A stretch of DNA of 61,967 nucleotides, filler included, from Stramenopiles sp. TOSAG23-6 (Eukaryota): the NCBI GenBank assembly GCA_900128565.1. It is 21 parts of 21 records of this genome, joined end to end, with 100 filler letters (N's around TTAATTAATTAA, not from the genome) between each part and the next. Parts side by side here need not be neighbours in the genome. Positions count along the whole stretch, not along the records: positions 1 to 2,870 come from LT637778.1; 20 more parts are not named here. The stretch is one strand, 5' to 3'. The position numbers were made by a program, and so were the translations under genes. The notes under the pieces were generated by a model. It was not told where the DNA came from. It ran no database searches and saw only the letters and a program-made list of their open reading frames with translations. Within the stretch, counting starts at the first letter, position 1; every line of letters begins with the position of its first letter. Positions 98 through 59,991 of the stretch are shown piece after piece.

Positions 98-2870
98 AAT
101 AATGGTGATAATAATAATAATGATGATGATAATAATGATGATGATGACGCAAATGATGACGTCATATTTTACGATGTACATCATTATTTTGACATGGAAA
201 AAAGACCAAAAAAATCGAATTCAAATACAAATATACCTATGAATCTTTCAGCAACTGACGCTTGTACGATTTCTTTTTCATCATGCATTTTTTTAACTTT
301 TTTTAACTTTTTTTTTAATTTTTTTTTTAATTTTTCATCATGCATTTTTTTAAATTTTTTTTAAATTTTTTTTTAATTTTTTTTAATTTTTTTTTAATTT
401 TTTTTTTTAATTTTTTCTTTTTGTAAGTAATTATATTCCTAATATTTTTTTCAATTAAAAAAAACAAACTAAAAACACAATACAGGTATCAGTATTTCCG
501 TAAGCGTCGCTCTATGTATGTTTCATTTTTTTTTTTAATTTCGAATTTATTTTTTTTTTCGTACGAAATTTCGTACCTAACAATTTTTTTTAGATTTTTT
601 TCAAAAAATATTTTTCCAAAATATTTATTTTTTTTCGTACGAAATTTCGTACCTAACAATTTTTTTTAGATTTTTTTCAAAAAATATTTTTCCAAAATAT
701 TTATTTTTTTTCGTACGAAATTTCGTACCTAACAATTTTTTTTAGATTTTTTTCAAAAAATATTTTTCCAAAAAACATCGGAGCTTGAATCTCTCTTATC
801 AATTGGTTCAAAATTGTCAACAACATTTGGTCGTTCGACTTTAAAATGGAATCGAAAACAAAAAGAAATTGAGAAATTTGTTGGCACTGAAGGCGAAATT
901 TTAGCTATTGTAGCAAAAATGCTATCTAATATATTTTCGAATTTTTATTTTTTGTCAAATAATTTGACAAAATCTGAAAAAACATTAGGGTTAGGGTTAC
1001 TCGAAAAAAAGTCTTTACAGTACAATTTTGATCCTATGGATGACACAAACATAGAATCAAACACGAAATCCCGATATTCTGAAAAATCAAGACGATCAAA
1101 AGAATCAAAATCAAATATTGAAATACACGAAATACAAGAAAATTATAAAAAAATGACAAATAGTAGAATTTCAACAAAAGAAAATGATGAAATGGAATGG
1201 ACACCAAACCATGAAAATCAAGAACATCAAGAAAAAAAATGTATGTAATTTCAATTTCAAATTTTATTTTTTTGGTTTTTTTTTTGGTTTTTTTTTTGGT
1301 TTTTTTTTGGTTTTTATACAAAATTTTGTACTTTTACAAAAAAAAATTTTATACAAAATTTACAAATTGTTTTTTTGTTGTACATATCGTTTAACAATGC
1401 ATACGCGGCGCCAACTAAAAAGGTAGAGAGTATATTGTCTGCGAGGCGAAAAATGTTACCAAGATTGTTCGTTTTCATTATTTTTTTAATTTCGAAATTT
1501 TTTTTTTTTTTTTTGTAGTAAATTTTGTACCTAACCAAAAAAAAAAAAATTTAAATATTTTTTCACAATGTTTAATTCGGTTGACTTGTCGAACATTTTT
1601 GCATTCAATAACAGCAGCCACAACCCAAACATCAAAACAAGTATTTGTTGAGGATTGTGACGGTTCCATTTCTCAAAAATGGCCGCAGCGTGTTTGGATT
1701 GAATTAGTTGAATTACGACGTAAAATTGGGGTAAGTGATTTTTTTTTTTTTTCAAATTTTTTTTCATACGAAATTTCGTACCTAACGAAACAAAATCAAT
1801 TTTTTTTTTTTGACCTACATTTTTTTTTTTTTTTTATTTTTACCTACAGTTTTGTTTTGGGAAAAATTCGTACCTAATGATTTTTTTTGTATTTACTTTT
1901 GTTCTTCACAATACTTGATTGGTTTATCAACGATGAAACCAATGAAACAAAAAACACGGATCCAATTTTAAATTTGTCAAAAAGTAGATACACGAAAAAA
2001 GAGTTAAATTCTAGTAATAGAAATAAAACTTTAGGGTTAGGGTTTGAACAAAAACAAAACAAACAAAACAAACAAAACAAACAAAACAAACAAAACAAAC
2101 AAAAAAAGCATCAAATACGAAGTAGTGATTTGGCGTCATGTCATCGCTCTCTTCCACTTTTACGTGGTACAATGGAAAAATTTGATCTTGCAATAGTGAA
2201 ACTTGCTCACTCTCCAATATATATATGTTTTATTCTTTTGAAAATTTGAATTTTTTTTTTTTTGAAAATTTTGTACCTAACAATTTTTTTTTATAGAAAA
2301 ATTTTGAAATATTTTTCCAAAATACTTGAAGTTGGTACGAAAACGTCTTTCGATTCCTCTATGGATATGTCTGATAATGCCACGTGTGGGTTTTCAATAC
2401 GAGATGAAGAGGGTCGCTTACTTCGAGGTTCACCATGTACGTTTTTTTTTTTTTTTTCAATTTTTTAAATAAATTTTTTTTTCTTACGAAATTTTGTACC
2501 TAACGATTTTTTTNNNNNNNNNNNNNNNNNNNNNNNNNNNNNAATACATGCTGCTCGACTTTGAGTGGATTTTGGATCGCAAAAAAAGAAACTGAACTCA
2601 GTTTGTCTTGGTGGATATCAGGATGCAATACCAAATCACTTGAAAAAGAAGAAAAGTTTTTGAATCGAATTAGTAGTATAATGATGATGGGAAAATCAAA
2701 AATTGATAATCGGACATACGAATTGGTGTACCAGTGCATGTATGTTTTTTTATTTTTTTTATTTTTTTTTCGTATGAAATTTTGTACCTAACAAATTTTA
2801 CAAAAAAAAAATATTTTCCAAAAATTACATGGTTCTTTCTCCTGAAGTTTGGCATCGCCAATTGTATTCA
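38..2870 (+). CDS. Partial intron-rich hypothetical protein with poly-Asp/Asn tract; inferred introns 264-485, 516-778, 1241-1387, 1467-1573, 1731-1916, about 2223-2327, 2437-2549, 2740-2830
   Basis: Exons join in frame after removing family introns (..DACISISVSVALSELESLL..); no family recognised. Confidence 0.55.
46..160 (+). repeat. (GAT)n/(AAT)n coding microsatellite
   Basis: Direct inspection; encodes poly-D/N. Confidence 0.9.
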
Positions 2871-3854: not shown

Positions 3855-5778
3855 TCAATAGTAGCTCATTCGATCATCTGTTGCTTTAGAAATTTCTCCA
3901 AGTAGAGCAGATTTACGAAGTAATTGTTGTTCTTTTTGAAAAAGCATTTTTTTTAGTGATGCAGTTTCATATGAGGCAGATGCCAACGCTTTTCTTGTGG
4001 CTAAATCAACCTCAGCTTGATATTTACAGATTGCATATATTGTAAGAAAATATTTCAAATTTTGTTTTCGTTAGGTACAAAATGTACTACGAAATATTTT
4101 TTTTAAATCTAGGAAAAAAAACATACATCTGTAGCAATAAATTTGATCTGACGCTCCCTTGCATCACTCGCTTCTTCTGACAATTCATTTGCAAATCTGT
4201 TACGATCAGTTTGCATCTTCAACGCTACAAAGTCATCAGATGTATTTTGGAAAAATATTTCAAAAAAAAAAAATAAAATTTGTTAGGTACAAAATTTAAA
4301 TTTAAATTTTTATAAAAAAAAAAATTCGAATTTGAAAAAAAATTAAACATACATGCTTGTTGTGCAACACGACGTTCCATTGCTGCATCTTCACGAGCCG
4401 AAGCCAGTTCCTTTTGCAAACGTTTCACTTCTAATCCAAGACGTTCACACCTATCATTCATTTCATTGTTCAAGTTTTCAGATAATTTATCTTTACTGTT
4501 TACACTAGAGACAGTAGAAGGGTTAGATTTATATGTATTTTGGAAAAATATTTAAAAAAAAATCTAAAAAAATCGTTAGGTACGAAATTTTGTACGAAAA
4601 AACAAATCAAATTTAAAAAAAAATAAAACATACATACTCCATCGGTTATATTCGTACTCTTATTCATTGAATAAAACATTTCGATTTCTTCTCTTTCTTC
4701 TTCCAATGATGATACTTTCTTTAAAAAATCCACAAACTTATTCTGAAACCAATTTGTTTTCTTTATCATTCCATGAATACTTTTTTTTAAATATAAAATT
4801 GATTTCTCAGAAGATGAAACGAGTCTCTTTGTGTACGCACTATAATTTTCTCTCTCATTATAAGCTGTTACTGGATGAAATACATCTGATAAATAAGAAA
4901 CAGATCGTTGAAGGAGTGTAAGCTTCTCAAAAGTTTCTCGAAGAGTTACATGTATTTTGGAAAAATATTTCAAAAAAAAAACTAAAATTTGTTAGGTACA
5001 AAATTTAAATTTAAATTTTTATAAAAAAATAAATTCGAAATTGAAAAAAAAATAAAACATACATTATTATGTTGAATGCTACTTTTGATAAATTCTGATG
5101 TTGAAAGAGTTTCAAATAATTTGAAATTAAATTCAACATTTGAAAAATCAACATTTAAATCAACATTTGAAAAATCAACATTTAAATCAACATTTGTGTG
5201 TACATTGGTTTGTGTTTTCAAAAAAGAGTCTGGTAATTGTTGCATTGTATAATCTATTGCATGGAACTCTTTTGAATTTTTATTCAAGTTGTTCCATATT
5301 TTTTCTTTTTTATCATATAATACCGTTGGCGACGTGGATGAAAAGTCAACATTATTTTCACCTAATTTTGATAACTTTGATAAATTTGATGATGAATGGC
5401 GAGGTGATGAGTCATAGCTTTCGTTGACAGAATTTGTGGACGTTTCTATGATATCATGATTGTTTATAGTATCTATATTATCAATATTATCTATATTAAA
5501 AATTCCTTCAAATTTGCTATCTTCCATTCGCTCCAAATCGTCATCGTCATTTTGATGATTTTGATGATTTTGATGAGTTTCATCCTCATCGTCATTTTGA
5601 TGATTTTGATGATTTTGATGAGTTTCATCATTACAATATACCCTTGACGATGGCTTCTCAATAAAATAACCATGTAAAGCAGTATTTTTACTATTATTCA
5701 CACTTAAGTTTTTGGTATTTCTATTTTTTTTATTTTGATTACTATGAAAATTTGCTTCTTTTGACATATTTGGATAAA
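3855..5778 (-). CDS. Partial coiled-coil protein; GT-AT introns at 4950-5062, 4533-4633, 4240-4352, 4035-4126
   Basis: All four junctions join in frame when cut GT..AT (HNN|VTL, GVY|KSN, QAS|DDF, TD|AIC). Confidence 0.75.
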
Positions 5779-6397: not shown

Positions 6398-8694
6398 ATG
6401 CAAGCCGGAAATTGCAATGTAATGATGAGAAAATTATTCGTTGGATTTAAAGCAAACTTTCTTCGTGTAAGCTTATTATTCATTCTTTTCCTCTCCGAAT
6501 CTTCTTCTTTCGAGTCTTTACAAATTCCTACAAAGCACGAAGTTGATCAAAATGAACGTTTCCAGACAAAGGAACAATATCGATCATCCTTGGCGTATGC
6601 TGCAATGATATCTTCTGAAATAATACATATTCCTCGTAAGCTTAACCAAGCAACTGCTTCTTATGAAGTGGGTGCTGATGGCTGGATACGTGCTCTTCCA
6701 GGCTCAACGTTTCGATATGGTGAAGTGTCAACGGAAGATAGAACTGCCTCCTCGGCACAGAAGTGGAGTACACCCGAAGAAGCGTCATCTTTAGAATTAG
6801 CTAAAAAGGCAGAAGCATTGATGGGTTGTTTAGATGATGGTGGGGCTGATTTAACAGAAGCTGTAGCGATAAGCGGCTCGATTATTTTATTTCTTGGTTT
6901 TTTGAGTGGTTGTTTGTTTGGTCGATGTTTCTCTTCAAAAAGAAAACAAGCCATAACACCTCTGGCCGCTGACGCAAGCTTGTACCTCAATCAGGGAAAT
7001 GGAAAATCGGTGTACAGTGAAATCATGAAAAAACATTCCTTGGGAAGTCGTCAATTTATGATGGATCTAGCAGTGCCTATACCTGCTGAAGACTCAGGTA
7101 CAGACTTATCTGACGACCCTTTTTTTGACGACCAACCACCAAATGTGAGGAATACTTTAAGAAAAAATCAACCTGGCTGGAGAGCTCGTCGTAATGATAT
7201 ACGTAAACGTAAAGAAGCTTTATTGTTAGGACCGAATAGTTCTGAGGCAAAGAAGGTTGAAAAGGAAGACAGAGAAGAACTTGCTCAACTATCTTCAAAG
7301 AAACGGTTGAATCGTGATGAATTACGGCGGAAGCAACAACTAGCAATGCAACTTCATAATGCTGATGTTGCTGCGACTGAAGCTCGGAATAATGCTCTAG
7401 TGTCTGCTGGACAGGATAAAATTGATGCTAATGAAATTCAAAAACGAATGATGGCTGAAGGAATGACAGATAAGGGAGTATATAACAACGCGCGAGAAAA
7501 ACAACGAAAGCTCATGGAAGAAAAACGCCGACGTAAAGCAGAGAAACGTGCAAAGCAAGGAAAGCCTCCAGTTCCTGTTCAGACACCGGAAATGATAGCT
7601 CAACAAGAAGCCATAGCTCTCATGGATGATATTTCAAAACTTCCTTCTCGGGAAAGAATTGCAGCTACTGAAGAAGGATATATTGATCACGTCAGAAGAA
7701 GTATACAACAAGGCAGAGAACCTAAACCATGTTTGTTTTATTTTTTTTTAATTTTTTGTCTAAATTGTTTTTTCGTACTAAATTTCGTACCTAACGAATT
7801 TTACAAAAAAAATACTTTTTCACAACATATACTCTGTCTGGGCTCTTCCTATGAAAGTTGGCCTTATGTACGTCTTCATCATCAACTTCAAATGTTTTTG
7901 TAAACCAATTTTGTAACTAACAATTTTTATTTTGAAAATATTTCCCAAAATATATTTCCCTCGATGATGATGGCGGTGTAGGAGGACAACAGAGAGTCTT
8001 TGGCCGTGGGGCAAGAAATTTCTCAAATCTTGTGATGCGTCAGAAAGATCACTTGCAGCATACCAAAATGGTCACTAATATTACACAAAAATACAATCGG
8101 GATGCAGATGAGCGTCATAATTCTCTGGAGCGAGATCGCCTAGAGCATAAAGCTAGAATGAAAAAGAAACGCATGAGGCGTACGTTTTCCTTTCAATTTT
8201 CGAGGTTTTTTTTCGTACGAAATTTTGTACCTAATGATTTTTTTTGAAATATTTTTTCACAATATATGCAAGCATAAACACGATGAAAAAGGTCACCGAA
8301 TTAAACGAGTTGAGGATGAGTTTCAAGCGTCGCAAGAAAGACGCGATGCACATATGTACGTTTTCATCATTCATTTCAATTTTATTTATTTTTTGTAGCA
8401 AATTCTAATTTCGTGTCATGTCTCTTACGACTTTCAAATTTGACATATTTTGTACTCTACATGGACGCAGGTAGAGAAGAGGCAAGAGAACGAGCAAGGA
8501 AAAGAAGGCGAGGGAGAAGGAAAAGACATCAGAGAGACATTGAAGAGCTAACACTGGAAGATGTTGATGGTACTGGCCAAGGTGTTGACGAAGAAGAAAA
8601 ACAGCGGCTGCATCGACAGAAAATGCAAGAGAGACACCGTAAAAGAAGAAACGATGCACTTAAAGAAAAAGGCGAAAATCCTGTTCCAGAATAA
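6398..8694 (+). CDS. Hypothetical signal-peptide/transmembrane protein with charged coiled-coil tail; introns 7731-7830, 7868-7955, 8180-8267, 8356-8462
   Basis: Long first exon plus four in-frame GT-AT joins linking the ORFs at 6398, 8032 and 8413. Confidence 0.75.
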
Positions 8695-8902: not shown

Positions 8903-10676
8903 ATTTCAGAAGAATCTTATTCTTATATAGATTAAATTTTGAGATTGCAAAATTATCATCAAAAGTGGAACTCAACTTTTACACCTGCAACCTATATGGA
9001 AAGTGTATACACAAAAAAGGGTGCTTTAGATAAAATTTCAAACATTGATGATATACTTTCACGTTATCCTGGTCAGGAGCATATTGTTATCCGAGAAGTG
9101 ATGAAAAAATACAAGACTTTAAAAAGTGAGGTCTATCCCATCTTGATGCGGTATGTATGTTTTCATGATGAATTTCATTTTTTTTTCGTACCAAATTTCG
9201 TACCTAACGATTTTTTTTTGTGTGACATATTTTTTAATCAACAGGAAGATTCACCTGAAACGTTTCGTTCACTTGAAGCAAATTCTGTACCTCAACTAAT
9301 GTTGATATTACCAAATGGTCGGAAGAAAATTACTAATTTTAAACCAGATGTTGAGAAGATTTCAGAATTTGTCAAGAAACATTTAAAAATTGACGTTCCT
9401 CTGTTCGTTTTCATCATTCATTTTATTTTTTTTTGTAGTAAATTTTGTACCTAACAAAATTTTGAAATTTTTCAAAAATATTTTTTTACAATTTATTTCT
9501 CCTCGGTCTGATAGTTATTTACCATATACACTTTTATGTGCTATATTTTTAGGTTTTTTACCTCCTTATCTTAGTTCAATACGAAAAGTAGTGAATATTT
9601 TAACATCGAGATGGATGGTACGTTTTTACTACAATTGTTTTTTTTTCATAGAAAATTTTGTACCTAACAAATTTAAAAAAAAATATATATATTTTTTCAC
9701 AAAACATGTTATGGTTTTAGCATTGGGAGTTTTTTTTGTGTCATCAAGTGGTTCAATTTCGTGTATTTTACAAAAATCACCTCTTTTTACTATGCAGAGA
9801 AATGTTCGTTTTCATCATGAATTTCAAATGTATTGTTCAAATGTATTGTTCAAATATATTTTTCAATTTTTTTTATACGAAATTGTATACCTAACAAATT
9901 TCAAAAGGTAAAAAATATATTCCCAAAATACATGTATGTTTCCATTTCAATTTCGAATTTTTTTTTTTTTTTATAAAAATTTTGTACCTAACGAATTTCA
10001 AAAGGTAAAAAATATATTCCCAAAATACATATTCCTCATTTTGTATACCCAAACGGACAACAACAAACTCTAGGTGAAGGTTTGATTGTTGGTTCTATTT
10101 ATCTCAGTATCAGTTTTTGTATTGTGTACGTTTTCATCATTAATTTTAAAACGTTTTTTTTTTCATACGAAATTTTGTACCTAATGTTTTTTTTGGAAAT
10201 ATTTTTTCACAGTACATGTTGCTATATAAAGTCTCAGGTAGTCCAACAAAGGAAAGTTGTAACCCTAATCGTATAGTATCTAATACGGAAAATCCGTATC
10301 TAAATTCGACCCATATTTTATCTTGTTTGATGCCTTCAAATGAACAAAAGTTACAAAATTTAAAGGGATATAAATGGACATGGTGGGGTCGACCAGCATT
10401 AGAAATCATGATAGATGACCGTAGATCAAACAGCCCTAACCCTACATTTTTAGCTGATGTACATAAATTGTCATTTACATCTTGGAGACAGCAAGGATTT
10501 CGTGTGGGTGGAATGCAATGGCTACAATATTGTACGTTGTTTACTTTTTACTTTTTTTTTTTTTTTTGTAAAAATTCTTGTACCTAACGAATTTCAAACG
10601 TAAAACATATTTTCCCAAAATACATTTGCAACAGCTTTTCTATCGGGTTGTTTTGTCTTTTTATATTATAATTTAA
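8903..10676 (+). CDS. OST3/OST6 (MAGT1/TUSC3-like) oligosaccharyltransferase subunit, 5' partial; introns 9155-9244, 9403-9496, 9618-9707, 9804-10030, 10126-10217, 10532-10625
   Basis: Spliced product has FRSLEANSVPQL, a TM with SSSG..CIL.KSP, and QQQTLGEGLIVG, typical of OST3/6. Confidence 0.7.
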
Positions 10677-11953: not shown

Positions 11954-13314
11954 GTACCTGTAGATGAAGGTCACTGTTATATATGGGGCCAGCCACTAGG
12001 GATGAGTTTGGATGCACAACAATTAAATAAAAAAGAGAAAAGTAAACAAAAAATATCTATAAAATTTCTAAAAAAGGGTAAAAAAATTCGTCCTACATTG
12101 GAAGGAGTAATTGCTAAACCATTACTGGTACAAAATTCAGTAAGAAGCCCTCAAAAAATAGTAATATCACATATATCGTGTGGTTATCGCCATACTGCAC
12201 TTACAACACAAAATGGATGTTTGTTTTATTTTTTTTCAAATTCCAATTGTTTTTTCGTATGAAATTTTGTACCTAACGAATTTTTTTTGAAATATTCTTC
12301 CAAAATAAATGTTTGTTCACATTTGGGCATGGTGTATGCGGTCGTTTAGGTCACGGCGGGACATGCGATGAAGTTTATCCTAGGCGCGTGGAATTTTTAA
12401 ACAAGTTGAATGTCTTTACAATTGGTTCAGCCTGTGGTCGCGAGCACACATTATGCTGGACAGTTGACGGTCGACTATTTTCATGGGGCTGGAATGAAGC
12501 AGGTCGATTAGGTCTCGGAGATGAAGATACTCGTTTCATACCTACAGAAGTTTCATGCCCAAAACAGTTATTTCGATACGATAGTTTAGCGAATGATGGC
12601 ATGTCGTCATCAACCGATTCAGATTCATTTGAACATCTAAGTGAAAGACAATGTATGTTTTATTTTTTTTTTTAACAAAAAATCGATTTTTGTTTTTATA
12701 AAAATTTTGTACCTAACAAATTTTAGTATTTTTTTTTGAAATATTTTTCCAAAATACATCTTTATCGTTGAATGATTGGGTAAAGAATGCGGCATGTGGT
12801 CGAGAACATACGTTAGTTGTCACAAAGAATGGTATACTACTTGCTTGTGGTGCTGGTCATGTATGTTTTATTTTTTTTCAAATTCGATTTTTTTTTCGTA
12901 CGAAAGTTTGTACCTAACGATTTTGTTTTGAAATATTTTTCCAAAATACATGGATTCCGCTTGGGAAATGGAAAGCAACGCGAACAATTGCAACTCGAGC
13001 CTGTCTTTGGAGAGTTACGGGATGAGATTGTTATTTCAGCATCTGCTGGGGAAGCTCATTCAGCATGTCTGACAATTGATCGTCTTGTATACACTTGGGG
13101 ATTTGGAGGATCTGGAGCTCTTGGACACAATTGTTTTGAATCAGAGAAGTTTCCTCGACGAATTGACTTTGCGCCTGTAGGTGCAAAGCAAATTGCATGT
13201 GGGGCATATCATACTGCTATCTTGGATATTTTAGGTAATTTATGGACTTGCGGTGATGGTGAGAATGGACAACTTGGGCGTTATGTATCAAAACAGGAAC
13301 GTATTGATCGATAG
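11954..13314 (+). CDS. RCC1-repeat protein, partial; introns 12219-12310, 12653-12759, 12861-12951
   Basis: Repeated ACGxxHT / WGxxxxGRLG motifs, continuous after splicing. Confidence 0.92.
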
Positions 13315-18104: not shown

Positions 18105-19053
18105 AAAATATTTTTCGACACATTACAGTTGTATTATATTGCAAAAGATATCAAAGATGAACATTTAGTACAATATACAGTCCAATCATTGAGTCGTCTC
18201 TTAGCCTCTGTTGGATTCGTTGTACATCCAATTGAATTTCATGACTCTCGTACGTTGATGCATCACGAATTTATAATTTATTTCCTTTTTTTTTTTTTTG
18301 AAAAAAATTTGTAAAAAATATTTTTTTTTTTTTTTTTAGTAAAAAAAATATAATTTTTCTAGTTGTTACATATGCACTAACACACTTCAAATTGTACATA
18401 AATACGATTTTACTATATATGTGGTTTATTGCATATGGAACACTGGAATAATATTAACGGTTCAATAAAACGGTCCGTCCGTTATGTACGATTTTATCAT
18501 GAATTTACCAATTTATTATTTTATTTTTTTATTTTTTTTTTTTTTTTTACAAAATTTCGTAGTGAATCATTTTCTTTTTAACACTTTTTTTTCGAAACAA
18601 AACAAATATTCTTTTACAATATATGATTCACGTGGCGCAATGTCTCTGATTATTGATGGTATAAAACCTTTACAACATCAATTGTATCAACAAAAAAATC
18701 AAAAATTATCAGATTTTTCTGATTTTTACCCTAACCCTAATGGTCAAATAATTAGACAACAAGATTTGCATAATATTGCACGAATATTTAAAACCCCACA
18801 AACTCCAATCACACTTGAGTATTTAACAATTATAGGTCAAATTATAGATAATAATAGAAGAAATTTACGAAATAAAAGAAAACAACTTCAAAACCCTAAC
18901 CCTAATGAAAACAGTATAAACCCTAACCCTAATGAAAATAGTATAACAAATGTACTACCAAATAATCCTCTGACTGTCACTACTTCAATGCCACAATGTA
19001 TACAAAATTTGGTAGCTAAAGATACATTGTTTTCAATCCAGTTGGATATCAGT
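17879..19053 (+). CDS. Unassigned exons separated by family introns; poorly assembled, possibly several genes
   Basis: Short open exons between homopolymer-rich introns; continuity uncertain. Confidence 0.35.
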
Positions 19054-19329: not shown

Positions 19330-20539
19330 CAATTTATGACTCCAAAGTTGTATTTGATAAAAAATGTCACTCAACGAATGCACCAACTGAAACTATAGAA
19401 CAGCATATGTACGTTACATCTTCAAGATTCATTTCAATTTCCAATTTATCAGGAAATTTTCATACGAAATTTTGTACCTAAGATTTTCTTTTTCAAGATT
19501 CATTTCAATTTCCAATTTATCAGGGAATTTTCATACGAAATTTTGTACCTAAGATTTTTTTTTTTTGTAATTACGTTTTCAACATTCATTTCAATTACGA
19601 TTATTTTTCATACATTTTTTTTTAAAACATTTTTTTCACTTTTTTTTTTTTTTTGGTATACAATTTTATACCTAACAACAACAAAAAATTAAATATTTTC
19701 TTGCATTTTATGTATTCTTATTTAAATAAAAAGTATGGTCTGAAGAGTCTGATTGTCGAACAAGCAGCAGCCATATTAAAAAGTGTCTATAAATTTTCTG
19801 TCATTGATAATGATGTCGCAGTGTTTTTAAATATATATAACAATATAATGTATGTTTTATTTTTTTTCATTTTTGTCCCAAAAAAAAAAAAAAAAAAAAA
19901 ATTAATTTGAAATTTGAAATTTGAAAAAAAAAAATTTTGAAAAATTTGAAAAAAAAAATATTTTTTCACAATATATAGACGAAGATTTTCGTCATGTTCA
20001 AATTCGACTCAAGGAAACAGTTTCGGAGCTTTTACGTGTATATTTAAAAGGAAAATATCCCCGAAAAGTGGACCATACAATAAACTCTCTATTACAAACA
20101 CGAAAAAAGGGAAATATGTATGTTTTTTTTTTTTTTTTTTTTTGGATGAATTTTTTTTTTTCATAGTAAATTTTGTACCTAACAAATTTTGGAATTTTTT
20201 TTGAAAAATTTTTCCAAAATACATCTTGGAGGACGAGTGGATCGATATTGTAAAATATATGTACAATAAAGAAGATTCTCTCAGTTTAACAATCAAGATA
20301 AAAAATGCAATTCAAAAGAGACCGAACGAAAAACGAAAATCAAGTACGTTTTTTTTTTTTTTTTAAATTTTTTTGAATGTATACAAAATTTTGTACCTAA
20401 GAAAAAACCAAAAAACATTTTTTTTTTTTTTTACAAAACAGTTCGGGGAAAACGACGAAATTTATCTTCTGATATACAAAAGGAAAATTGTCTTCCATTT
20501 ATTCAATTTCTTAAGATCCTTTTGGATTTTCAATTAGAT
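19330..20539 (+). CDS. Conserved protist protein of unknown function (TSNAXIP1-like region); introns 19409-19711, 19850-19976, 20118-20224, 20345-20441
   Basis: Spliced ETIEQHMYSYLNKKYGLKSLIVEQAAAI..DNDVAVFLNIYNNIIDEDFRHVQ matches a remembered conserved motif. Confidence 0.6.
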
Positions 20540-38606: not shown

Positions 38607-40835
38607 CTACACAATTTCGTTCCATGCGATATTTGTAATTCTGAGATTGTCGTAAATGAGCAGGTAGTAGATATTCTGCCATTATTTTTGGATTTTTTAC
38701 AATACGTAAAATACCTCCTATAATACGTTGTAATGCATTTGAAATACAAATTCGATTTTTAATTAACCCTAACCCTCTATTTGATTGGGAGAATTTTTTT
38801 TTTTGATTTGAGATTGAATTACTTGTTGTATTCGTTGTATTCGTTGTACTACTACTACTACTACTACTACTATTTGTTTGATGTCCTTTCAATGATGATA
38901 ATAACATAACACATTGGAGTAATTTAGAAATTGGTTCACGAAAGCGAAACGATCCATTTTTTTTTTTATATTCTACTGTTGTTTTCTTACCCTTATTATT
39001 AGGGTTAGGGTTAGTATTTTGATTATTTTGTGATTTCTGCATCAAAATATTATAATTACGTAGAGTAGTTTGAAATTCCTCAAAGCAGCGCTCGATTCGT
39101 AATTCTAAAAATGAGCAATTTTGATTTGTTGCATTGTTTTTGTTTTGTGCCGTAAGAGGAATTCGAACGTCACATGTATTTTGAAAAAATATTTCAAAAA
39201 AAATCTACAAAAAATTGTTAGGTACGAAATTTCGTATGAAAAAAAATAAATATTTTGGAAAAATATTTCAAAAAAAATCTAAAAAAAATTGTTAGGTACA
39301 AAATTTCCTATGAAAAAAAAAATGAAAAAAAAAAATGAAAAAAAATAAAACATACGCACCTCAACAAAATAACGGCACAATCTTTCCAATAGAAAATCAC
39401 CAAATTGAACTAAAGTTGAACAGTCATTTTCATAATTATGATTTTTTTGTACATTATATACATTGATTTCGTGTTTATACTCGATTTCGTGTTTATGTTC
39501 CATCACTATTGATACTAAATTGTCATATAAAAAATAACGCAGAGAGGACGAAAAACCAAGGGCTAATTTTAAACAATTTAAAGCTTCAAATTGGAGATCG
39601 TGATGAGATTGGCTCTTTGGAGATAGAATAAGACAAAACCCAGCAATGGCCATTTTTCTATGATTTGTTTTTTTAGCCATAAGTTTTTTTCGTAAAAAAA
39701 TCATGTGTGGTGAAAAAATAATTTAAAAAAAAAAATTTTTGGTTAGGTACAAAATTTCGTATGAAAAAAAAAAAAAAAAAAAAAATTAAATTCCGAAATT
39801 GAAATGAATCATAAAAACAAACATTAAAGCTGAACTAAAAGTAACGCTTATACCAATCAATGGTCGGAGACATCGCAATAAACTAATGACAGCATCATAA
39901 CGAAATGTTTGCACATAATCTAACCATTCTGCAGTAATTGCTGCAAATATTGTACAACAATATTTCAAAAAAAAAAAAAATTTAAATTTTCAAAAAATTT
40001 TCAAAAAAATTTCAAAAAAAAAAAAAATAAATTGTATAAAAAAAAAAAAATAAATGAAATTCATAATGAAAACAAACATGTTCCATTAAATACTGCAAAG
40101 TATCAGATGAATTACAAATACAACTAATTAATTCAAAATAATAAAATAAAACAGTTTTTGATGTAGAATTGAGATGTAATTCATTTGATTCGTCATCTTC
40201 ACAATCCTTTACAACTGAATGCTCAGATATAGACTGAAATAACATGTATTGAAAAAAAATATTTGAAAAATTTGATTTTTTTTGTTTTTTTTTGTTTTTT
40301 TGTTAGGTACAAAATTTCGTATTAAAAAAAAAATAAATTCGAAATTGAAAAAAAATATTTTAAAAATTTGATTTTTTTTGTTAGGTACAAAAGTTTGTAT
40401 TAAAAAAAAAATAAATTCGAAATTGAAAAAAAATAAAACGTACATGCGCAACATTTCACTTCGTACTGATGCAGTTGCATGAAATAAAGTAAATAATATT
40501 TTTATTGCTGTGGATGGTTTCAAAAGTGTTATATCTGAATTCTTTAGGGTTAGGGTTTCTTCGCATGTATTACAACATACAGTATATATTGTGAAAAAAT
40601 TTTGAAATTTTTTTTTTTTACCGAAAAAAATATTTTTTTGTTAGGTACAAAATTTCGTATGAAAAAAATTTAAATTTCAAAAAAAAAAAAAAAAACTTGA
40701 AAACGTACAAGAAGTGATGCGGCAGCTTCAAGACCACCACACGAAATAATCTTTTTTGCCACAATCTCAATGTCACTATACTGTTTTAAAAAATTAGGTT
40801 TTCGTCGCATATCGTGATGATTATTATGATGAGTG

Positions 40836-40868
<33 letters not shown>

Positions 40869-41310
40869 GGATTAGGGTTAGGGTTAGAAATTTGTATATC
40901 ATTTTCAACATTAGGGTTAGGGTTAGGATTATTTTGTTTTGTACTCAATTCTGTACCTAACGTTTTTTTTTCTTTTGTAGAGTAGCGTAGTAAATGTTTG
41001 GAATAAACCAAAACAAATTCCACAACTGTTTGTCGTTTTCTTCTTGCTCGTGAATCGGCAACACTCATATGATGGGAAAAAATATTTTTTTTGTATAATT
41101 TGTTAGGTACGAAATTTCGTACGAAAAAAAACATAAAATTTTTTTTGAAAAAAAAAAAAAAAAAAAAACTAAAATTTGTTAGGTTCAAAATTTCGTATAA
41201 AAAAGAAAAAAATTGAAATTCATGATGAAAACGTACATAGGTGACTCGTCAGCAGCACATTTGGCAAGAAGAGCAATAACAGCATATTGCCACGTAATGC
41301 TATGGCACTC
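38607..41310 (-). CDS. FANCI: FANCI-like DNA repair protein, internal part; introns 41067-41236, 40584-40708, 40244-40443, 39945-40077, 39703-39822, 39174-39355
   Basis: EWLDY..LLRCLRPLIGIS..LMIFLRKKLM..RKMAIAGFCLIL..FEALNCLKLAL..LRYFLYDNL resembles the FANCI solenoid. Confidence 0.7.
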
Positions 41311-41464: not shown

Positions 41465-41470
41465 ACCAGT

Positions 41471-41518
<48 letters not shown>
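41465..41518 (-). tRNA. tRNA-Phe(GAA), 3' truncated by contig end
   Basis: GCCGCGATAGCTCAGTTGGGAGAGCGTCAGACTGAAGATCTGAAGGTCACTGGT. Confidence 0.92.
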
Positions 41519-41759
41519 AAGGATTAGTGTGCAGAACCGTCACCTTTGTCAAATATAAACACCTATGACACTACAATACAAAGAAAAAAAACATTTGAAA
41601 AAAAAATCAAATTTTTTTTAGATTAGGGTTAGGGTCTCAAACTCAAAATTGGCAGTTGAAATAACGAATAAATCCATTTGGAATTATAGTCAGTCAACAT
41701 TGTGACGACGAAAAAAAAATGTTTTTACTCCAACACAAAATAGTCCTCGGAGGCAATAA

Positions 41760-42950
41760 ATGCTTCCAGCAAAAACAATACTCAACGCAGCAGTTACAGT
41801 AGTGTCTAATCCTTTGCCTGGTGTACGTTTGGCTTCAAATATGGCAAAAGAGTGCCGTCGCGTAAAGTCTCAAGAACAAGACGAAGTCTCAAAAAGTTCA
41901 GTTCATTCAATAGTACCCTCACATCTTTCAGCACAACTTTCATCACAAATTTCAAGTTCAGTTTCAACTTCAGTTTCACCTTCAATTTTAAATTCAGTAG
42001 TACCTTCGCTTCCTGGTGTAACTGTAGAATCGATGGATCCATGTATCCTCCCTGATACTTTCCGTATGATGAATTCTTTAGAAAATAGAAAATCAGCTTG
42101 TATAGCATTCCAAAAACGTGGTTTTATATCTATTGATCAGTTAGTTGAACCTACTTTTGCGGAGGAGCTTAATGTTCGCCTTGAGCGTGTTTTGAGAGGT
42201 GAATATGATACTGGAATTACCCCTGACAAAATACCGAAGCGAATAAAACCTGGTAATAATGGTGTCTTGGGTTTCAGTGGTAATCCTATCAAAAGGACTC
42301 TCCAAATCATCAACATTTGGAAGAGTGACTCAACATTTGCAAAATTAGTATTATCACCAACCCTTGGCCAAATAGTAGCGACACTTGGTGGATGGAAATA
42401 TGGGGCGCGAATTGCACAAGATCAAGTTTGGGCTAAACCACCAGGTGCTAGTTCCCTTGTGTTTCATAGAGATTCTCCTTACTTTGATTTCTGTCCAAAT
42501 GACGTCATTACAGTTTGGATTGCACTTGACGATATGACACAAAAACCAAGTATTGGACCTTTGGAATATGCAGTAGGTAGTCATTTATGGGGTGATGGTC
42601 GCTCTGGTTCCGCAAATCAATTTTTTCAGGACGAACGTCGTCGTCTTTTAGACTCTGCTGCATTACTGGAAGGAATTGATCCAGATGATGTTGAAATTGT
42701 TACAGTGAAAGTTTGTAAAGGTGGTTGTAGCATTCATAATGGTAAAACGTGGCACGGAAGTGGTCCAAATACATCTTCAAAGTTTCCACGTAGAGGTCTT
42801 GGAATCCACTTTATCCCAGCAAATGCAGAATTTAAAGAAATCAAGCAAGGTGAAAGACCTCTTGGTAAATTGTGGCTTTCTCACAAATCAACTGATAGTA
42901 ATTCTCTACCCTCTGATGTATTCCCCATTACTTTTAGTAGTAAGAAGTAA
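41760..42950 (+). CDS. Phytanoyl-CoA dioxygenase (PhyH) family 2OG-Fe(II) oxygenase
   Basis: DQVWAKPP..FHRD..TVWIALDD..TWHGSGPN..RRGL. Confidence 0.9.
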   Translation: MLPAKTILNAAVTVVSNPLPGVRLASNMAKECRRVKSQEQDEVSKSSVHSIVPSHLSAQLSSQISSSVSTSVSPSILNSVVPSLPGVTVESMDPCILPDTFRMMNSLENRKSACIAFQKRGFISIDQLVEPTFAEELNVRLERVLRGEYDTGITPDKIPKRIKPGNNGVLGFSGNPIKRTLQIINIWKSDSTFAKLVLSPTLGQIVATLGGWKYGARIAQDQVWAKPPGASSLVFHRDSPYFDFCPNDVITVWIALDDMTQKPSIGPLEYAVGSHLWGDGRSGSANQFFQDERRRLLDSAALLEGIDPDDVEIVTVKVCKGGCSIHNGKTWHGSGPNTSSKFPRRGLGIHFIPANAEFKEIKQGERPLGKLWLSHKSTDSNSLPSDVFPITFSSKK

Positions 42951-43367
42951 TACATGCTGAAGTTATTAATATATTAAAAAAAATATCAATAGTGAAAAAA
43001 TATGAATAGTAATCATCAACCAACTTTGTTCAAAAGTATTTATTCGAAATTCCTATTTTTGGGAAATAGTAATATGCAGCGCACGAAATCTAAATCGGAA
43101 ATATCCGACACAAATCACAATTTGAAAATAGTAGCAAAAAAGGTAGTAAATTACTATTACTATTAGTTATTTTTATGACTCTACTACTTATTTAAAGTTA
43201 AAGACTTAAAGTATTACGCAGACTGGTACTAGGTGTACTAGTAAATAGTAGTAGTAGTACTAGCCCTATACAGTTACTTACTTCTTCTAAGTTCAAAGCC
43301 TGGTAGATAGAATCGATTTGAGATTAAGGTTAGGTATTAATAACTTTACTATTCTGATTGCTGTAAA

Positions 43368-44313
43368 ATGATGGGTTCCAAGAAGAATGACAAGTTTAAC
43401 GACGCAGAATATCGGCGATTTGTGAAAGAAAAGAAATTAATGGTAAAGAAGTTACCAGAGGTTCGCAAAAGTGCGAGTAGCTTTTTTCTTCAGCTTGGAA
43501 TTACTTGTACAGCAGCACAGGAATTTACAGAAACACTTGGACAATTCACAGTTGATTCGTTTGATCTTAATCGTAATACTCTTTCAAGACTCTGTAAAGC
43601 TCAGAAAGCTACAGGCAATATTGGACATGATTTTGCTTGGACTAAGCAAATGACCTCTCCAGCTAGAGAGTTTCTGAACGTGTTACCAGAACGTATTCGG
43701 GACGTGGAAAATAATATTTCAGAGCGTCGGAAATCTCTGATTGCTTTACATTCTCTTGGTGTTCAGTTGGGAAAAGCGAAAGAGAAAGCGCGAAAAACTC
43801 GTTCCAAGGCTTTGAAGAAAGGGACATTTCTTACAAGCAGTAAGAAACGTCAAGCAGCTGCATTGAAAGCTAAAGAGTCGTTAGAGAATTGCAAGCAAGT
43901 GTATGCAAATTTGGAAAAGCTCGTCGAAGAATCAACCCACAAACTCAATCAAACTGTTGATAGATTACAGGCTGACCAAGCTATTATGCTTCGAAAAGAA
44001 CTCAATGCACTTGCTACTGTCCAACTCTCCATTGCAAAAGAAACAGTAGACATAATGAAAAATGTTTTAGAGAAGCAAGATGATGAACTTGATGTAGCAA
44101 ATGTGTTTTTAGATAGACGACCTGAGAGAAGAAGACTATCCATAGAAATGAGCGTGACGGATAGTTCTCAATTGAGTGATGAAGGGTATGAGAAAAAATG
44201 TTCTAAAGATGAAAATGTACTACAAAAAAACAGAAAAAACGATGATGAAAACCCACAGAGTGCTGAAAACAACGAGAGTACTACNACNANTNAGACTGAT
44301 GATTTTCTTACAC
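43368..44313 (+). CDS. Coiled-coil, BAR-domain-like protein, 3' partial
   Basis: Long helical ORF; BAR assignment tentative. Confidence 0.55.
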
Positions 44314-44413: not shown

Positions 44414-44419
44414 ACCAGT

Positions 44420-44467
<48 letters not shown>
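44414..44467 (-). tRNA. tRNA-Phe(GAA), partial, duplicate-contig copy
   Basis: Same sequence as 41465-41518. Confidence 0.9.
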
Positions 44468-44708
44468 AAGGATTAGTGTGCAGAACCGTCACCTTTGTCA
44501 AATATAAACACCTATGACACTACAATACAAAGAAAAAAAACATTTGAAAAAAAAATCAAATTTTTTTTAGATTAGGGTTAGGGTCTCAAACTCAAAATTG
44601 GCAGTTGAAATAACGAATAAATCCATTTGGAATTATAGTCAGTCAACATTGTGACGACGAAAAAAAAATGTTTTTACTCCAACACAAAATAGTCCTCGGA
44701 GGCAATAA

Positions 44709-45899
44709 ATGCTTCCAGCAAAAACAATACTCAACGCAGCAGTTACAGTAGTGTCTAATCCTTTGCCTGGTGTACGTTTGGCTTCAAATATGGCAAAAGA
44801 GTGCCGTCGCGTAAAGTCTCAAGAACAAGACGAAGTCTCAAAAAGTTCAGTTCATTCAATAGTACCCTCACATCTTTCAGCACAACTTTCATCACAAATT
44901 TCAAGTTCAGTTTCAACTTCAGTTTCANCTTCAATTTTAAATTCAGTAGTACCTTCGCTTCCTGGTGTAACTGTAGAATCGATGGATCCATGTATCCTCC
45001 CTGATACTTTCCGTATGATGAATTCTTTAGAAAATAGAAAATCAGCTTGTATAGCATTCCAAAAACGTGGTTTTATATCTATTGATCAGTTAGTTGAACC
45101 TACTTTTGCGGAGGAGCTTAATGTTCGCCTTGAGCGTGTTTTGAGAGGTGAATATGATACTGGAATTACCCCTGACAAAATACCGAAGCGAATAAAACCT
45201 GGTAATAATGGTGTCTTGGGTTTCAGTGGTAATCCTATCAAAAGGACTCTCCAAATCATCAACATTTGGAAGAGTGACTCAACATTTGCAAAATTAGTAT
45301 TATCACCAACCCTTGGCCAAATAGTAGCGACACTTGGTGGATGGAAATATGGGGCGCGAATTGCACAAGATCAAGTTTGGGCTAAACCACCAGGTGCTAG
45401 TTCCCTTGTGTTTCATAGAGATTCTCCTTACTTTGATTTCTGTCCAAATGACGTCATTACAGTTTGGATTGCACTTGACGATATGACACAAAAACCAAGT
45501 ATTGGACCTTTGGAATATGCAGTAGGTAGTCATTTATGGGGTGATGGTCGCTCTGGTTCCGCAAATCAATTTTTTCAGGACGAACGTCGTCGTCTTTTAG
45601 ACTCTGCTGCATTACTGGAAGGAATTGATCCAGATGATGTTGAAATTGTTACAGTGAAAGTTTGTAAAGGTGGTTGTAGCATTCATAATGGTAAAACGTG
45701 GCACGGAAGTGGTCCAAATACATCTTCAAAGTTTCCACGTAGAGGTCTTGGAATCCACTTTATCCCAGCAAATGCAGAATTTAAAGAAATCAAGCAAGGT
45801 GAAAGACCTCTTGGTAAATTGTGGCTTTCTCACAAATCAACTGATAGTAATTCTCTACCCTCTGATGTATTCCCCATTACTTTTAGTAGTAAGAAGTAA
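44709..45899 (+). CDS. PhyH-family dioxygenase, duplicate-contig copy
   Basis: Same as 41760-42950. Confidence 0.88.
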   Translation: MLPAKTILNAAVTVVSNPLPGVRLASNMAKECRRVKSQEQDEVSKSSVHSIVPSHLSAQLSSQISSSVSTSVSXSILNSVVPSLPGVTVESMDPCILPDTFRMMNSLENRKSACIAFQKRGFISIDQLVEPTFAEELNVRLERVLRGEYDTGITPDKIPKRIKPGNNGVLGFSGNPIKRTLQIINIWKSDSTFAKLVLSPTLGQIVATLGGWKYGARIAQDQVWAKPPGASSLVFHRDSPYFDFCPNDVITVWIALDDMTQKPSIGPLEYAVGSHLWGDGRSGSANQFFQDERRRLLDSAALLEGIDPDDVEIVTVKVCKGGCSIHNGKTWHGSGPNTSSKFPRRGLGIHFIPANAEFKEIKQGERPLGKLWLSHKSTDSNSLPSDVFPITFSSKK

Positions 45900-46316
45900 T
45901 ACATGCTGAAGTTATTAATATATTAAAAAAAATATCAATAGTGAAAAAATATGAATAGTAATCATCAACCAACTTTGTTCAAAAGTATTTATTCGAAATT
46001 CCTATTTTTGGGAAATAGTAATATGCAGCGCACGAAATCTAAATCGGAAATATCCGACACAAATCACAATTTGAAAATAGTAGCAAAAAAGGTAGTAAAT
46101 TACTATTACTATTAGTTATTTTTATGACTCTACTACTTATTTAAAGTTAAAGACTTAAAGTATTACGCAGACTGGTACTAGGTGTACTAGTAAATAGTAG
46201 TAGTAGTACTAGCCCTATACAGTTACTTACTTCTTCTAAGTTCAAAGCCTGGTAGATAGAATCGATTTGAGATTAAGGTTAGGTATTAATAACTTTACTA
46301 TTCTGATTGCTGTAAA

Positions 46317-47262
46317 ATGATGGGTTCCAAGAAGAATGACAAGTTTAACGACGCAGAATATCGGCGATTTGTGAAAGAAAAGAAATTAATGGTAAAGAAG
46401 TTACCAGAGGTTCGCAAAAGTGCGAGTAGCTTTTTTCTTCAGCTTGGAATTACTTGTACAGCAGCACAGGAATTTACAGAAACACTTGGACAATTCACAG
46501 TTGATTCGTTTGATCTTAATCGTAATACTCTTTCAAGACTCTGTAAAGCTCAGAAAGCTACAGGCAATATTGGACATGATTTTGCTTGGACTAAGCAAAT
46601 GACCTCTCCAGCTAGAGAGTTTCTGAACGTGTTACCAGAACGTATTCGGGACGTGGAAAATAATATTTCAGAGCGTCGGAAATCTCTGATTGCTTTACAT
46701 TCTCTTGGTGTTCAGTTGGGAAAAGCGAAAGAGAAAGCGCGAAAAACTCGTTCCAAGGCTTTGAAGAAAGGGACATTTCTTACAAGCAGTAAGAAACGTC
46801 AAGCAGCTGCATTGAAAGCTAAAGAGTCGTTAGAGAATTGCAAGCAAGTGTATGCAAATTTGGAAAAGCTCGTCGAAGAATCAACCCACAAACTCAATCA
46901 AACTGTTGATAGATTACAGGCTGACCAAGCTATTATGCTTCGAAAAGAACTCAATGCACTTGCTACTGTCCAACTCTCCATTGCAAAAGAAACAGTAGAC
47001 ATAATGAAAAATGTTTTAGAGAAGCAAGATGATGAACTTGATGTAGCAAATGTGTTTTTAGATAGACGACCTGAGAGAAGAAGACTATCCATAGAAATGA
47101 GCGTGACGGATAGTTCTCAATTGAGTGATGAAGGGTATGAGAAAAAATGTTCTAAAGATGAAAATGTACTACAAAAAAACAGAAAAAACGATGATGAAAA
47201 CCCACAGAGTGCTGAAAACAACGAGAGTACTACNACNANTNAGACTGATGATTTTCTTACAC
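46317..47262 (+). CDS. Coiled-coil/BAR-like protein, duplicate-contig copy
   Basis: Same as 43368-44313. Confidence 0.55.
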
Positions 47263-51671: not shown

Positions 51672-52502
51672 ATGGGCGATGAATCACGAAATCGTGCATT
51701 TGGTATTATAAATGCTGTATGTGGTAGTCTGTTGACTGCCATTGGGTATGGTTTACAAAAAGTTACGCTGAATAAACTTGACAATGCATTTGGTCCTGAA
51801 CTATCCAACCCAAATCGACCAAACGTTCTTACTTTACCATTATACATATGTGCTCTAGTTTTACTCTTTTTAGGTGCAATCTCAGCTGCAGCAAACCTTG
51901 GAATCCTTGGTCAAGCAGCTGGTTCAGCTTTTTCTGGTATTGCTTTAGTATTTAATCAATTTTTAGGATGGTGGTGGCTTCAGGAGAAATATACATTTTG
52001 GCATGGCATTAGTGCTATTTTTATTGTTACAGGACTTATTTTATCTGTTTCATTTGCAGATATGAAACAACAAAAGTTTACTATAGATCAAATGCTTGAT
52101 ATGTATATACAACCATGGAAAATTGTATTTACAGTTATCATTCTTGGTATAGCTACATCAAGTCATAAACAATTAATACGTGTATTTTTTTTTTCGTACC
52201 AAAGTTTGTACCTAACAACAAAAACTATTTTTTTTTGAAATTTTTTTTTGAATTTTTTTTTCGTACGAAAATTTGTACCTAACAAAAAAAAATATTTTTT
52301 TTTGAGAAATATTTAATATTTTTCCAAAATATATCAAACAAATATAAAAGTATCAAGAAAAATTTTAATACATATTTCGACTGTTGCGGGTATAGCTAGT
52401 GCATTTTCTGCTCTATCTACAAAAACAGTACTTGAAGTACTCAAATCTGATATTTCTGAAAAATTAGCCCCAAATACAACAAAAGGATTTAAACAATTAC
52501 CT
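51672..52502 (+). CDS. NIPA-family (DMT) Mg transporter N-terminal half; intron 52182-52334
   Basis: GSLLTAIGYGLQK, ALVFNQFLGWWWLQEK, SAFSALSTKTVLEVLK. Confidence 0.75.
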
Positions 52503-58951: not shown

Positions 58952-59165
58952 GTATGTTTTATTTCTTTTTTTTAACAAAAAAAATCGAATTTTTTTTTAT
59001 AGTAAATTTTGTACCTAACAATTTTTTTTAGANNNNNNNNNNNNNNNNNNNNNNNNNNNNNNNNNNNNNNNNNNNNTTAATTAATTAANNNNNNNNNNNN
59101 NNNNNNNNNNNNNNNNNNNNNNNNNNNNNNNNAAAACTTTGAAATTGAAAAAAAATAAAATATAC

Positions 59166-59730
59166 ATATCTATGAGAAGAATTCCTATTTGATGTCATTA
59201 AAGAGTATCCTAAATTGTGATGGCAACTCCAAAGAGAAGGATCAAGCTGTATACACTGTTGAAATGCTGAAATTGCTTCTGCGTCAAAGTTTCGTTTTGT
59301 CGGACATATTTTCTCATCTTTGGAATTTATACAACTTTCACAGCTATGTTTTTTCTTACGAGATATTGCCATCAGTGAGGCCCCATAGTTTAATTGTATA
59401 TTTGCCTTATCTGGACTCAGTAATACCGCTTTAGAAAATGATACTGAAGCCTCTTCTTCTCGATTCAAAATATCTCAAAGCTTTTGCGTGATTATTCAGT
59501 TTGTCTAGAGATACTGCAATATTGAAAGTCACGGTAGGGTTATTAGGCATGGAGTCTAAAGTATCCAGGAAAAGTTGGAGAGCTTCTCTATAATTTCCAA
59601 CGCTAGACTTTTCGACAGCTTTTGAGAACAGTTTGACAGGGTCAACCAAGTCATTCCCTAGACTCTCTGAGTACGAAGCAGCAAAGACAGCCAAAGTTAA
59701 TATCAAGTATATTTGACAAAATGCCAACAT
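59166..59730 (-). CDS. Signal-peptide TPR protein with an internal frameshift near 59465
   Basis: TPR motifs in two overlapping frames (59431-59730 and 59085-59468). Confidence 0.6.
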
Positions 59731-59991
59731 CTATGATACAAGAATGAGCCTTGTTCGTATTTAATTTAGTCAGTCGGTAATACTAAATTACTGTTGCTAC
59801 CATAAATAATGAAAATATTTAGCTAATCAACATTCAAATAAATAAATAAATCAAAAAGCCGCCGATTTTGACGATTTTGACCGAATTTCAAATCTGATGA
59901 CCTATCACACACACCCTTGATTCTCCCATATAATAGTATTACTTGATATTATATATTACTTGAAGTACGTTTCTTTCGGTGACACAACACA

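Follow-up and report, generated by a model that had tools for sequence, protein, structure and literature searches.

The window analysed here, the whole 61,967-nt stretch from the Stramenopiles sp. TOSAG23-6 genome assembly (GCA_900128565.1), is made of contigs of ~2.9 kb joined by 100-nt linkers, and its first contig carries, within a predicted intron, a perfect 16-nt palindrome that runs directly into CTAAC. The best named matches of CCT-beta, compared at full single-domain length, are stramenopiles at 70-71% (Triparma, oomycetes, Tribonema, Aplanochytrium), with other sequences at 75-89%; the DNA also occurs in sequencing runs from seawater, and we take the source to be an uncultured marine stramenopile. 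FTHFS was of no help in placing the lineage. We find that the motif is one form of the core of a large family of short introns, most of which lack a terminal AG and are spliced nonetheless. The features of the intron that holds it are given below, with the genes of this genome read in the standard code and a slash marking each exon-intron boundary.

264..485, plus strand: upstream intron of the same gene, GTACGA...CACAATACAG, GT-AG, with a family-type tail and with neither palindrome nor TACCTAAC.
516..778, plus strand: predicted family intron holding the motif, GT-AT, exon CTAT/GTATGT ... AAACAT/CGG, 263 nt.
516..524, plus strand: donor GTATGTTTC, preceded by exonic AT and complementary to the 5' end of a variant U1.
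561..576, plus strand: perfect 16-nt palindrome GTACGAAATTTCGTAC, repeated at 637-652 and 713-728.
566..581, plus strand: conserved block AAATTTYGTACCTAAC, in which CTAAC (577-581) is the predicted U2 branch site, with the branch A presumably at 580.
729..733, plus strand: last copy of CTAAC, 46 nt upstream of the acceptor and the likely branch site of intron 516-778.
752..778, plus strand: conserved 3' tail AAATATTTTTCCAAAAAACAT (family consensus T-run + CA(A/C)AATAYAT), the proposed acceptor signal.

Excising 264-485 and 516-778 leaves a single open frame. The second intron is 263 nt long because a 76-nt internal unit is triplicated (tandem repeat at 552-773, 100% identity). Tandem duplications of the core and its flanks within single introns, with periods of about 67-78 nt and several branch boxes per intron, were also seen in the window at 19421-19564, 39208-39323, 40293-40412 and 52184-52292; some may be assembly errors.

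Introns of the family were called from donor and 3'-tail profiles only, leaving the motif aside, in 870 kb of sequence (the window and further stretches), which yielded 169 introns. The family has a median length of 100 nt and the consensus exon NAT/GTAYGTTTT, a T-rich spacer, the core, a T/A run, AAATATTTTT(C/T)CA(A/C)AATAY and AT/exon. An AG end, as U2-type introns should have, is present in only 8 of the 169; the others are GT-AT (137), GT-TT (11), GT-GT (7), GT-AA (3), GT-AC (2) and GT-CT (1), a tally that covers introns with the family tail only and in which some of the GT-TT calls are likely to be wrong. Once the introns are taken out, the reading frame stays open in 137 of 153 testable joins; the control values are 33 for the opposite strand and 42-54 for a 3' end displaced by 1-2 nt.

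The clearest case is an FTHFS gene (L087) that contains eight family introns ending, in order, AT, AG, AT, GT, AA, AG, AT and AT. Cut in the GT register, it gives a 678-aa open reading frame (ORF) with 519 identities to a 679-aa homologue (P0001), and this register beats every slid register against all three homologues tried. Contigs of four metatranscriptome runs (X6-X9) were aligned to L087:3895-10000; most joints listed in this comparison link motif copies of other loci and were disregarded as artefacts, and stretches that no contig covers carry no weight either way. One X6 contig skips L087 6897-7040 exactly and without ambiguity, which removes a GT-AA intron. An X8 contig with 0 mismatches skips a 99-nt GT-AT intron, where a repeated GT permits a slide of 2 nt downstream and the AT-AC register is excluded; the same contig begins exactly at the exon following an AG intron, and X7 and X8 contigs stop at the CAT/GT donor of a neighbouring gene. 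Family elements lie in sense within coding sequence and restore conserved proteins when cut GT...AT (also AG, GT and AA), and their AG-less splicing is confirmed by protein homology and by two RNA junctions, GT-AA exactly and GT-AT. An earlier note on this DNA had placed the motif in the branch-point region of introns that lack AG, and this has held.

The donors are matched by an altered U1 small nuclear RNA (snRNA). The sole U1 found in the genome (54 bits, below the gathering score, E 3e-12) has the 5' end AAACGUACAUG (L024:349-359) in place of the Rfam consensus AUACUUACCUG, and its changes at positions 2, 5 and 9 face intron +7 (T 100%), intron +4 (T 63%, C 37%) and exon -1 (T 89%; exon -2 is A in 80%). 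All 169 donors pair better with the variant than with the consensus (mean 10.4 vs 7.5 of 11); the intronic donor positions were used in intron selection, the exonic ones were not. Judged from its gene, this predicted U1 matches an AU/GUAYGUUU donor at all three changes. The donor GT with +5 G is complementary to both the variant U1 and U6. U2, U6 and U5 are ordinary in their key elements, with GUGUAGUA in U2, ACAGAGA in U6 and a canonical loop I in U5. The U5, U2, U1 and U4 genes lie head to tail on one strand within 640 nt (L024:9-645, contig G000:C1146), separated by 2, 23 and 5 nt by model coordinates, and could possibly form one precursor transcript. This contig also carries a family intron, and a second identical assembled copy of the cluster is on C6122 (L002).

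Since AT flanks both ends, most copies can also be written two bases upstream, as ATGTATGT...AC, and hence as minor-spliceosome, U12-like AT-AC introns. Introns of the U12 type have the donor RTATCCTT and the branch box TCCTTAAC, which TACCTAAC loosely resembles, and the earlier note had called the branch motif intermediate between the U2 and U12 forms. The family itself has GTAYGTTT and TACCTAAC, and its U2 carries the canonical GUAG, complementary to the branch core. The RNA junctions exclude the AT-AC register, the FTHFS residues favour the GT register, the variant U1 fits it as well, and in the intron at window 10532 the AT-AC register brings in an in-frame stop codon. U12 and U6atac were not found in a genome search run without a positive control on an incomplete assembly, which we do not count as loss. 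We consider AT-AC splicing of the family extremely improbable. An intermediate status of the branch motif is not supported either, given the canonical U2 and the GTAYGT donors.

CTAA lies 20-70 nt from the intron end in 164 of the 169 introns, complementary to U2 GUAG, and CTAAC is accordingly predicted to be the U2 branch site of the family. These 164 introns are the set for the core statistics that are given per intron. The GTAC just before CTAAC, which forms the end of the palindrome's 3' arm, is 94-99% conserved and the central AAATTT 93-97%, so a conserved signal does reach upstream of CTAAC, as had been claimed. The palindrome itself does not constitute it: positions 1-5 of the 5' arm are conserved in 53, 87, 84, 68 and 68%, and the perfect form occurs in 9 of the 164 introns. 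Palindrome-type matches with at most 3 mismatches number 61 in the window where 0.34 are expected; five of them are perfect, and three of the five sit in the 76-nt tandem triplication described above. In the genome assembly (21.1 Mb in 6,236 contigs, incomplete), AAATTTYGTACCTAAC has 7,730 exact copies, compared with one for the reversed control, and the perfect palindrome followed by CTAA has 435, about 6% of that count; the two patterns differ in their last base and both counts are inflated by duplicated contigs. AAATTTYGTACCTAAC, rather than the perfect palindrome, is the conserved unit of the family, and the palindrome, while present at 561-576 as described, is a minority variant of the core. 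The flanks are T/A-rich, as the earlier note had it, yet they do not vary freely: C precedes the palindrome in 69% and R-A follows CTAAC.

Duplicated contigs are frequent in this assembly. Within the window, the adjoining contigs 41465-44313 and 44414-47262 have identical sequence in common, with the same match context at 43336 and 46285.

The form of the core raises the possibility that the branch point is presented by a GUACGA/UYGUAC stem-loop, stacked on CUAAC, which would also replace the recognition of AG, be it only as a helper in part of the copies; as an extended branch-point signal this was the central proposal of the earlier note. The stem stops exactly at the start of CUAAC. Folded alone, the perfect form reaches -6.5 kcal/mol and the commonest form -4.4 kcal/mol, all six pairs are possible in 66 of the 164 introns, and in whole introns the core-pair probability exceeds 0.5 in 65 of the 164, with a local energy of -1 or weaker in 48. 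The commonest deviation from the perfect form, C12>T (77%), leaves a G-U pair. The variants at 2772, 6017 and 20381 fold weakly or into other structures.

Conservation of pairing gives a different picture, as judged from ~0.87 Mb of sampled sequence and genome-wide exact-pattern counts rather than from an alignment of all copies. In 56 window copies, picked by hand with N-containing, tandem-duplicate and weak matches left out and one row a base out of register, paired cells amount to 78.0% in both the real and the shuffled set, double-sided changes number zero, and RNAalifold predicts no pair. Counts per pair in the 164 introns equal independence (closing pair 89 vs 88.6 expected; pair 5:12 130 vs 130.0), a test with low power where the 3' side hardly varies. 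Among 239 changes in the 5' arm, 35 keep the pair and 204 break it, with 44.3 keeps expected at random; over distinct 16-mers the numbers are 29 and 142, with 36 keeps expected. The frequent changes G1>A (53 of 164), C4>G (27), A3>T (23), G1>T (20) and T2>A (19) all break pairs, and the claim that common variants keep pairing is not confirmed, although C12>T does keep it. Conservation is higher in the AAATTT that would be the loop than in the stem.

Genome-wide, with the rest of the arm intact, the forms of pair 5:12 are G5:T12 (4,515 copies), G5:C12 (975), A5:T12 (105) and A5:C12 (46), and the pair-breaking double change A5:C12 is enriched (odds ratio 2.0, p 1.6e-4). At position 4:13, the wobble T:G is found 223 times, the broken C:A 256 times and the compensated T:A 24 times. 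The last is in favour of a kept hairpin, being above the 10.4 expected (odds ratio 2.3, p 5.5e-4), but the pair-breaking double change shows the same two-fold excess, which suggests that older copies simply carry more changes. The eight FTHFS introns keep, in order, 5, 6, 5, 6, 3, 2, 2 and 2 of the six pairs; four of them thus retain only two or three, and the GT-AA intron with three is spliced in RNA. No covariation or wobble bias beyond composition was detected in the sampled sets, and genome-wide the result is essentially the same. The hairpin is able to form in about 40% of copies, with no sign of being kept for pairing. As a required splicing signal it has no support in the pairing, substitution and RNAalifold tests, and we rejected it in that role; the model as a whole, the helper role included, we regard as improbable. 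The central palindrome is best read as a relic of the element, apparently not needed as a hairpin.

The variants quoted in the earlier note at 2772, 8215 and 12257 are as it gave them; the one placed at 20380 begins at 20381, its closing pair is an A-C mismatch, and CTAAG comes after it. The introns that hold these and two further members are listed here.

2740..2830, plus strand: GT-AT family intron with the 2772 variant.
4533..4633, minus strand: GT-AT family intron with core GTACAAAATTTCGTAC, which has an A-C mismatch on the RNA strand; a counter-example to the hairpin.
8180..8267, plus strand: GT-AT family intron with the 8215 variant; the exon ends GC, hence its ends are not a direct repeat.
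10532..10625, plus strand: GT-AT intron that lacks the 5' arm of the hairpin; read as AT-AC instead, it introduces an in-frame stop.
12219..12310, plus strand: family intron with the 12257 variant, donor GTTTGT and end AAAT, in an RCC1-like gene (named by eye).
20344..20441, plus strand: GT-AG family member with the 20381 variant.

A few family members start with AT and not GT, namely L023:3977-4071 (minus strand), window 2223-2327 (plus strand) and L048:9066-9177 (plus strand); one of them, which lies in a nucleotide-sugar transporter gene and has a U2-type body, is AT-AC, and the other two end TT.

How is the 3' end chosen where AG is absent? The branch-to-acceptor distance has a median of 39.5 nt, a 5th-95th percentile of 32-49, a range of 19-65 nt and a standard deviation (SD) of 6.4; it peaks at 33-35 and again at 43-44 nt, and the two peaks, some 10 nt from each other, probably correspond to two subfamilies. 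Because this distance varies, the branch point cannot fix the 3' end by distance alone, and the 19-65 nt spread with its two peaks speaks against a single fixed ruler. In 53 of 156 non-AG introns the segment from branch to end contains an AG, and in 29 of those a YAG is found at least 8 nt past the branch. Given the variable distance and the skipped AGs, neither a ruler nor first-AG scanning explains the acceptor. The conserved tail beside the cut is also present in the homology-defined FTHFS introns, and the acceptor is most likely set by this tail. We propose that a protein would recognise the sequence of the U-run and the CA(A/C)AAUAY tail, U having taken the place of the terminal G. Upstream of it, U2 GUAG would pair with CUAAC, possibly extending past the bulged C to GUA, in competition with the hairpin. 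Two other candidates were rejected: a variant U2 complementary to TACCTAAC, as only two identical canonical copies exist among 47 scored candidates, and RNA pairing between the intron ends, as the +4 C/T does not covary with -6.

Prp8 at ~1480-1560 (human numbering), the region that we take to contact the acceptor, matches human Prp8 except at two residues, and a changed acceptor pocket was rejected on this match. The genome has a U2AF65-like gene, so U2AF65 is not lost. No U2AF35-like protein was present among 16 zf-CCCH matches, and SF1-HH was not found in the genome search; both searches ran without a positive control on the incomplete assembly, and neither result is counted as loss. A Cwc24-like gene (by eye) is present. 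In the RNase H domain of Prp8 (L067:5586-5640, minus strand), IIVTRPFLLDPME differs from the human stretch, presumably TRKGMLDP at that point and usually conserved; Ns follow, and the sequence quality is uncertain. Splicing is described as needing a non-Watson-Crick pair of the first and last intron bases, with several near-isosteric alternatives (PMC13326754); by analogy, the G-U of GT-AT introns would be a near-isosteric case.

The family appears to have spread by copying. In 129 of the 169 introns the exon-end and intron-end dinucleotides are the same (104 expected), and matched dinucleotides other than AT number 15 against 1.4 by permutation, which supports a 2-bp direct repeat (p<1e-4) that does not extend to 3 bp. 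This coupling fits a 2-bp target duplication, because such a duplication would give matched ends. The element ends are inverted, GTAT...ATAC. For 31 of 90 copies the most similar copy at a different locus reaches 90% identity or more, and the median is 0.875 vs 0.78 in shuffled controls; copies at unrelated loci reach 94-96% identity, and the top pair is a duplicated gene region. We propose that these ~100-nt introns are introners that the major spliceosome removes without AG. They would derive from a short non-autonomous DNA transposon with GTAT...ATAC ends that inserted at NN (AT in most cases) and duplicated these 2 bp, the second copy of which would have become the acceptor, and the central palindrome would be a DNA-level feature of the element, now decaying in its 5' arm.

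The same uniformity could instead have arisen in non-mobile introns if selection had favoured a single long signal, made up of donor, extended branch box and tail, that a remodelled spliceosome reads, as in Entamoeba or yeasts. Co-evolution of U1 has a precedent in Entamoeba and Mastigamoeba (10.1101/2022.06.08.495308), low-complexity T/A runs inflate identity, and the DDE_Tnp_4 search found no matching transposase. Selection alone leaves three observations aside, namely cross-locus identity above a control that retains the signals, the coupling of exon-end and intron-end dinucleotides that target duplication gives, and the presence of eight introns at all phases in one FTHFS gene, and we judge it unlikely. 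Spread through RNA is a further option, in which the excised intron is reverse-spliced at CAU/GU-like sites, the 2-nt repeat reflects a preference of the spliceosome, and the palindrome serves there or not at all. The sense orientation in tested joins, an insertion context like the U1-matched donor at both ends and the missing transposase partner would all agree with it. We nonetheless find it very improbable: direct repeats other than AT (GT, TT, AG, CT, AA) agree at the two sides, a match that an intron of fixed sequence would not produce, the element has short inverted ends, and the A5:C12 excess mirrors the common form, as would be expected of DNA-level events.

Taken as a whole, an introner-type family with a branch-site core, AG-less removal by the major spliceosome, an acceptor chosen by the tail and a transposon origin is the explanation that we favour, as probable though well short of certain. 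Several points weigh against it. There are only two complete RNA junctions, both of one gene and both on metatranscriptome contigs of low depth (8.8 and 3.7), the GT-AT junction has its 2-nt ambiguity, and one X7 contig extends 42 nt into intron 7 (unspliced RNA or DNA). U1 is known from its gene sequence, its expression being predicted, and the duplex that duplexfold forms between U2 and the branch region is weak (-1.8 to -1.9 kcal/mol). The excess of compensated T4:A13 also counts against it. Tail conservation in the 169 introns is partly circular, as they were selected by profile, and only the eight FTHFS introns are independent. The inverted ends are just 4-6 bp, and no autonomous transposon with matching ends was found, the DDE_Tnp_4 search giving 5 matches at 2 distinct loci with no GTAT-type ends in the stretches read.

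One of the loci examined, L112 (G000:C2432, with copies C2433, C2439 and C2440), holds a Harbinger-like element by eye, with a DDE_Tnp_4 ORF and a convergent second ORF, and a family core lies about 150 nt past the transposase stop codon. We rejected this proximity as a transposon link, as about one core per 2 kb is expected by chance (413 in 870 kb).

Yeast-type U2 introns follow the consensus GTATGT / TACTAAC / YAG. The family shares with them the GTATGT donor, the strict CTAAC branch core and canonical U2 and U6 boxes, but has an extra C in TACCTAAC, a long conserved upstream box, a conserved 3' tail and no AG. Introners in Micromonas and Aureococcus arise as intron-generating transposons. 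The likeness to the introners of two surveys (PMC9860276, PMC12130899) covers many short introns of almost the same sequence at unrelated sites, their precise removal, short inverted ends, and a direct repeat from which one splice site derives, whereas here the acceptor is mostly AT and U1 matches the element. The latter survey gives AG and AC as 3' sites, with non-canonical families screened by hand; the terms 'GT-AT', 'stramenopil' and 'palindrom' are absent from the main text of both. ISL2EU DNA transposons (PMC4482050) likewise duplicate a 2-bp AT target, but they insert at A/AT/T, and GG usually opens their inverted repeats. The family lacks the A..T flanks (the following base is G in 49%), has GTAT ends and duplicates dinucleotides besides AT; with neither the A/AT/T target nor the GG-starting repeats, membership was rejected.

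In Fritillaria borealis (PMC13326754), most introns also escape GT-AG under a major spliceosome with conserved core parts; this is explained there by U2AF subunits that are duplicated and divergent and by m6A changes, and the two U1 versions have identical 5' ends. Here, in contrast, we see a strict GTAYGT donor and a changed U1 5' sequence. For U2AF, one U2AF65-like gene was found, and no U2AF35 among the 16 zf-CCCH matches. The U1 5' end of Entamoeba and Mastigamoeba is altered to complement an atypical donor, whereas the change here includes exon -1 (U1 position 9) and accompanies loss of the AG acceptor. The same source gives a standard U1 for Thecamonas (+4 C), Mamiellales and 69 yeasts, and U1 compensation is therefore rare (10.1101/2022.06.08.495308). 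Full-text literature searches, whose coverage ended short of subscription papers and supplements, returned no paper on a GT-AT-dominated intron family or on such a U1.

Two further observations concern the window at large. At 59133-61967 (plus strand), excising the intron 61525-61617 gives a long frame with alpha/beta-hydrolase-like and aminotransferase-like parts (named by eye). TTAGGG / CCCTAA runs occur in coding frames at 985-998, 2034-2044, 18891-18946 and 40900-40930, giving LGLG or NPNPN peptides, and are common in other loci too.

The family behaves as an introner and as a U2-type intron but lacks the AG; the system is real and unusual. Tentatively, and as a possibility that we hold with less than even confidence, we propose that a transposon invasion re-tuned the major spliceosome from CAG/G to CAU/G at both intron ends: U1 would have changed to read the AT target duplication at the donor, AG recognition (U2AF35) would have been lost or replaced by a factor for the CA(A/C)AAUAY tail, and the catalytic core, its Prp8 pocket unchanged, would tolerate nearly every terminal dinucleotide. 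The hairpin itself contributes little. Standard gene callers will mis-splice the genes of this lineage. Co-evolution of an snRNA with introns, as in the matched U1, is rare, and here it reaches exon -1 and can be tied to a transposon target site. Few rules of eukaryotic gene expression are as conserved as the AG acceptor, and thousands of GT-AT introns together with canonical U2 and U6 and a nearly unchanged Prp8 make it possible to test in nature which elements of 3' splice-site recognition are indispensable.

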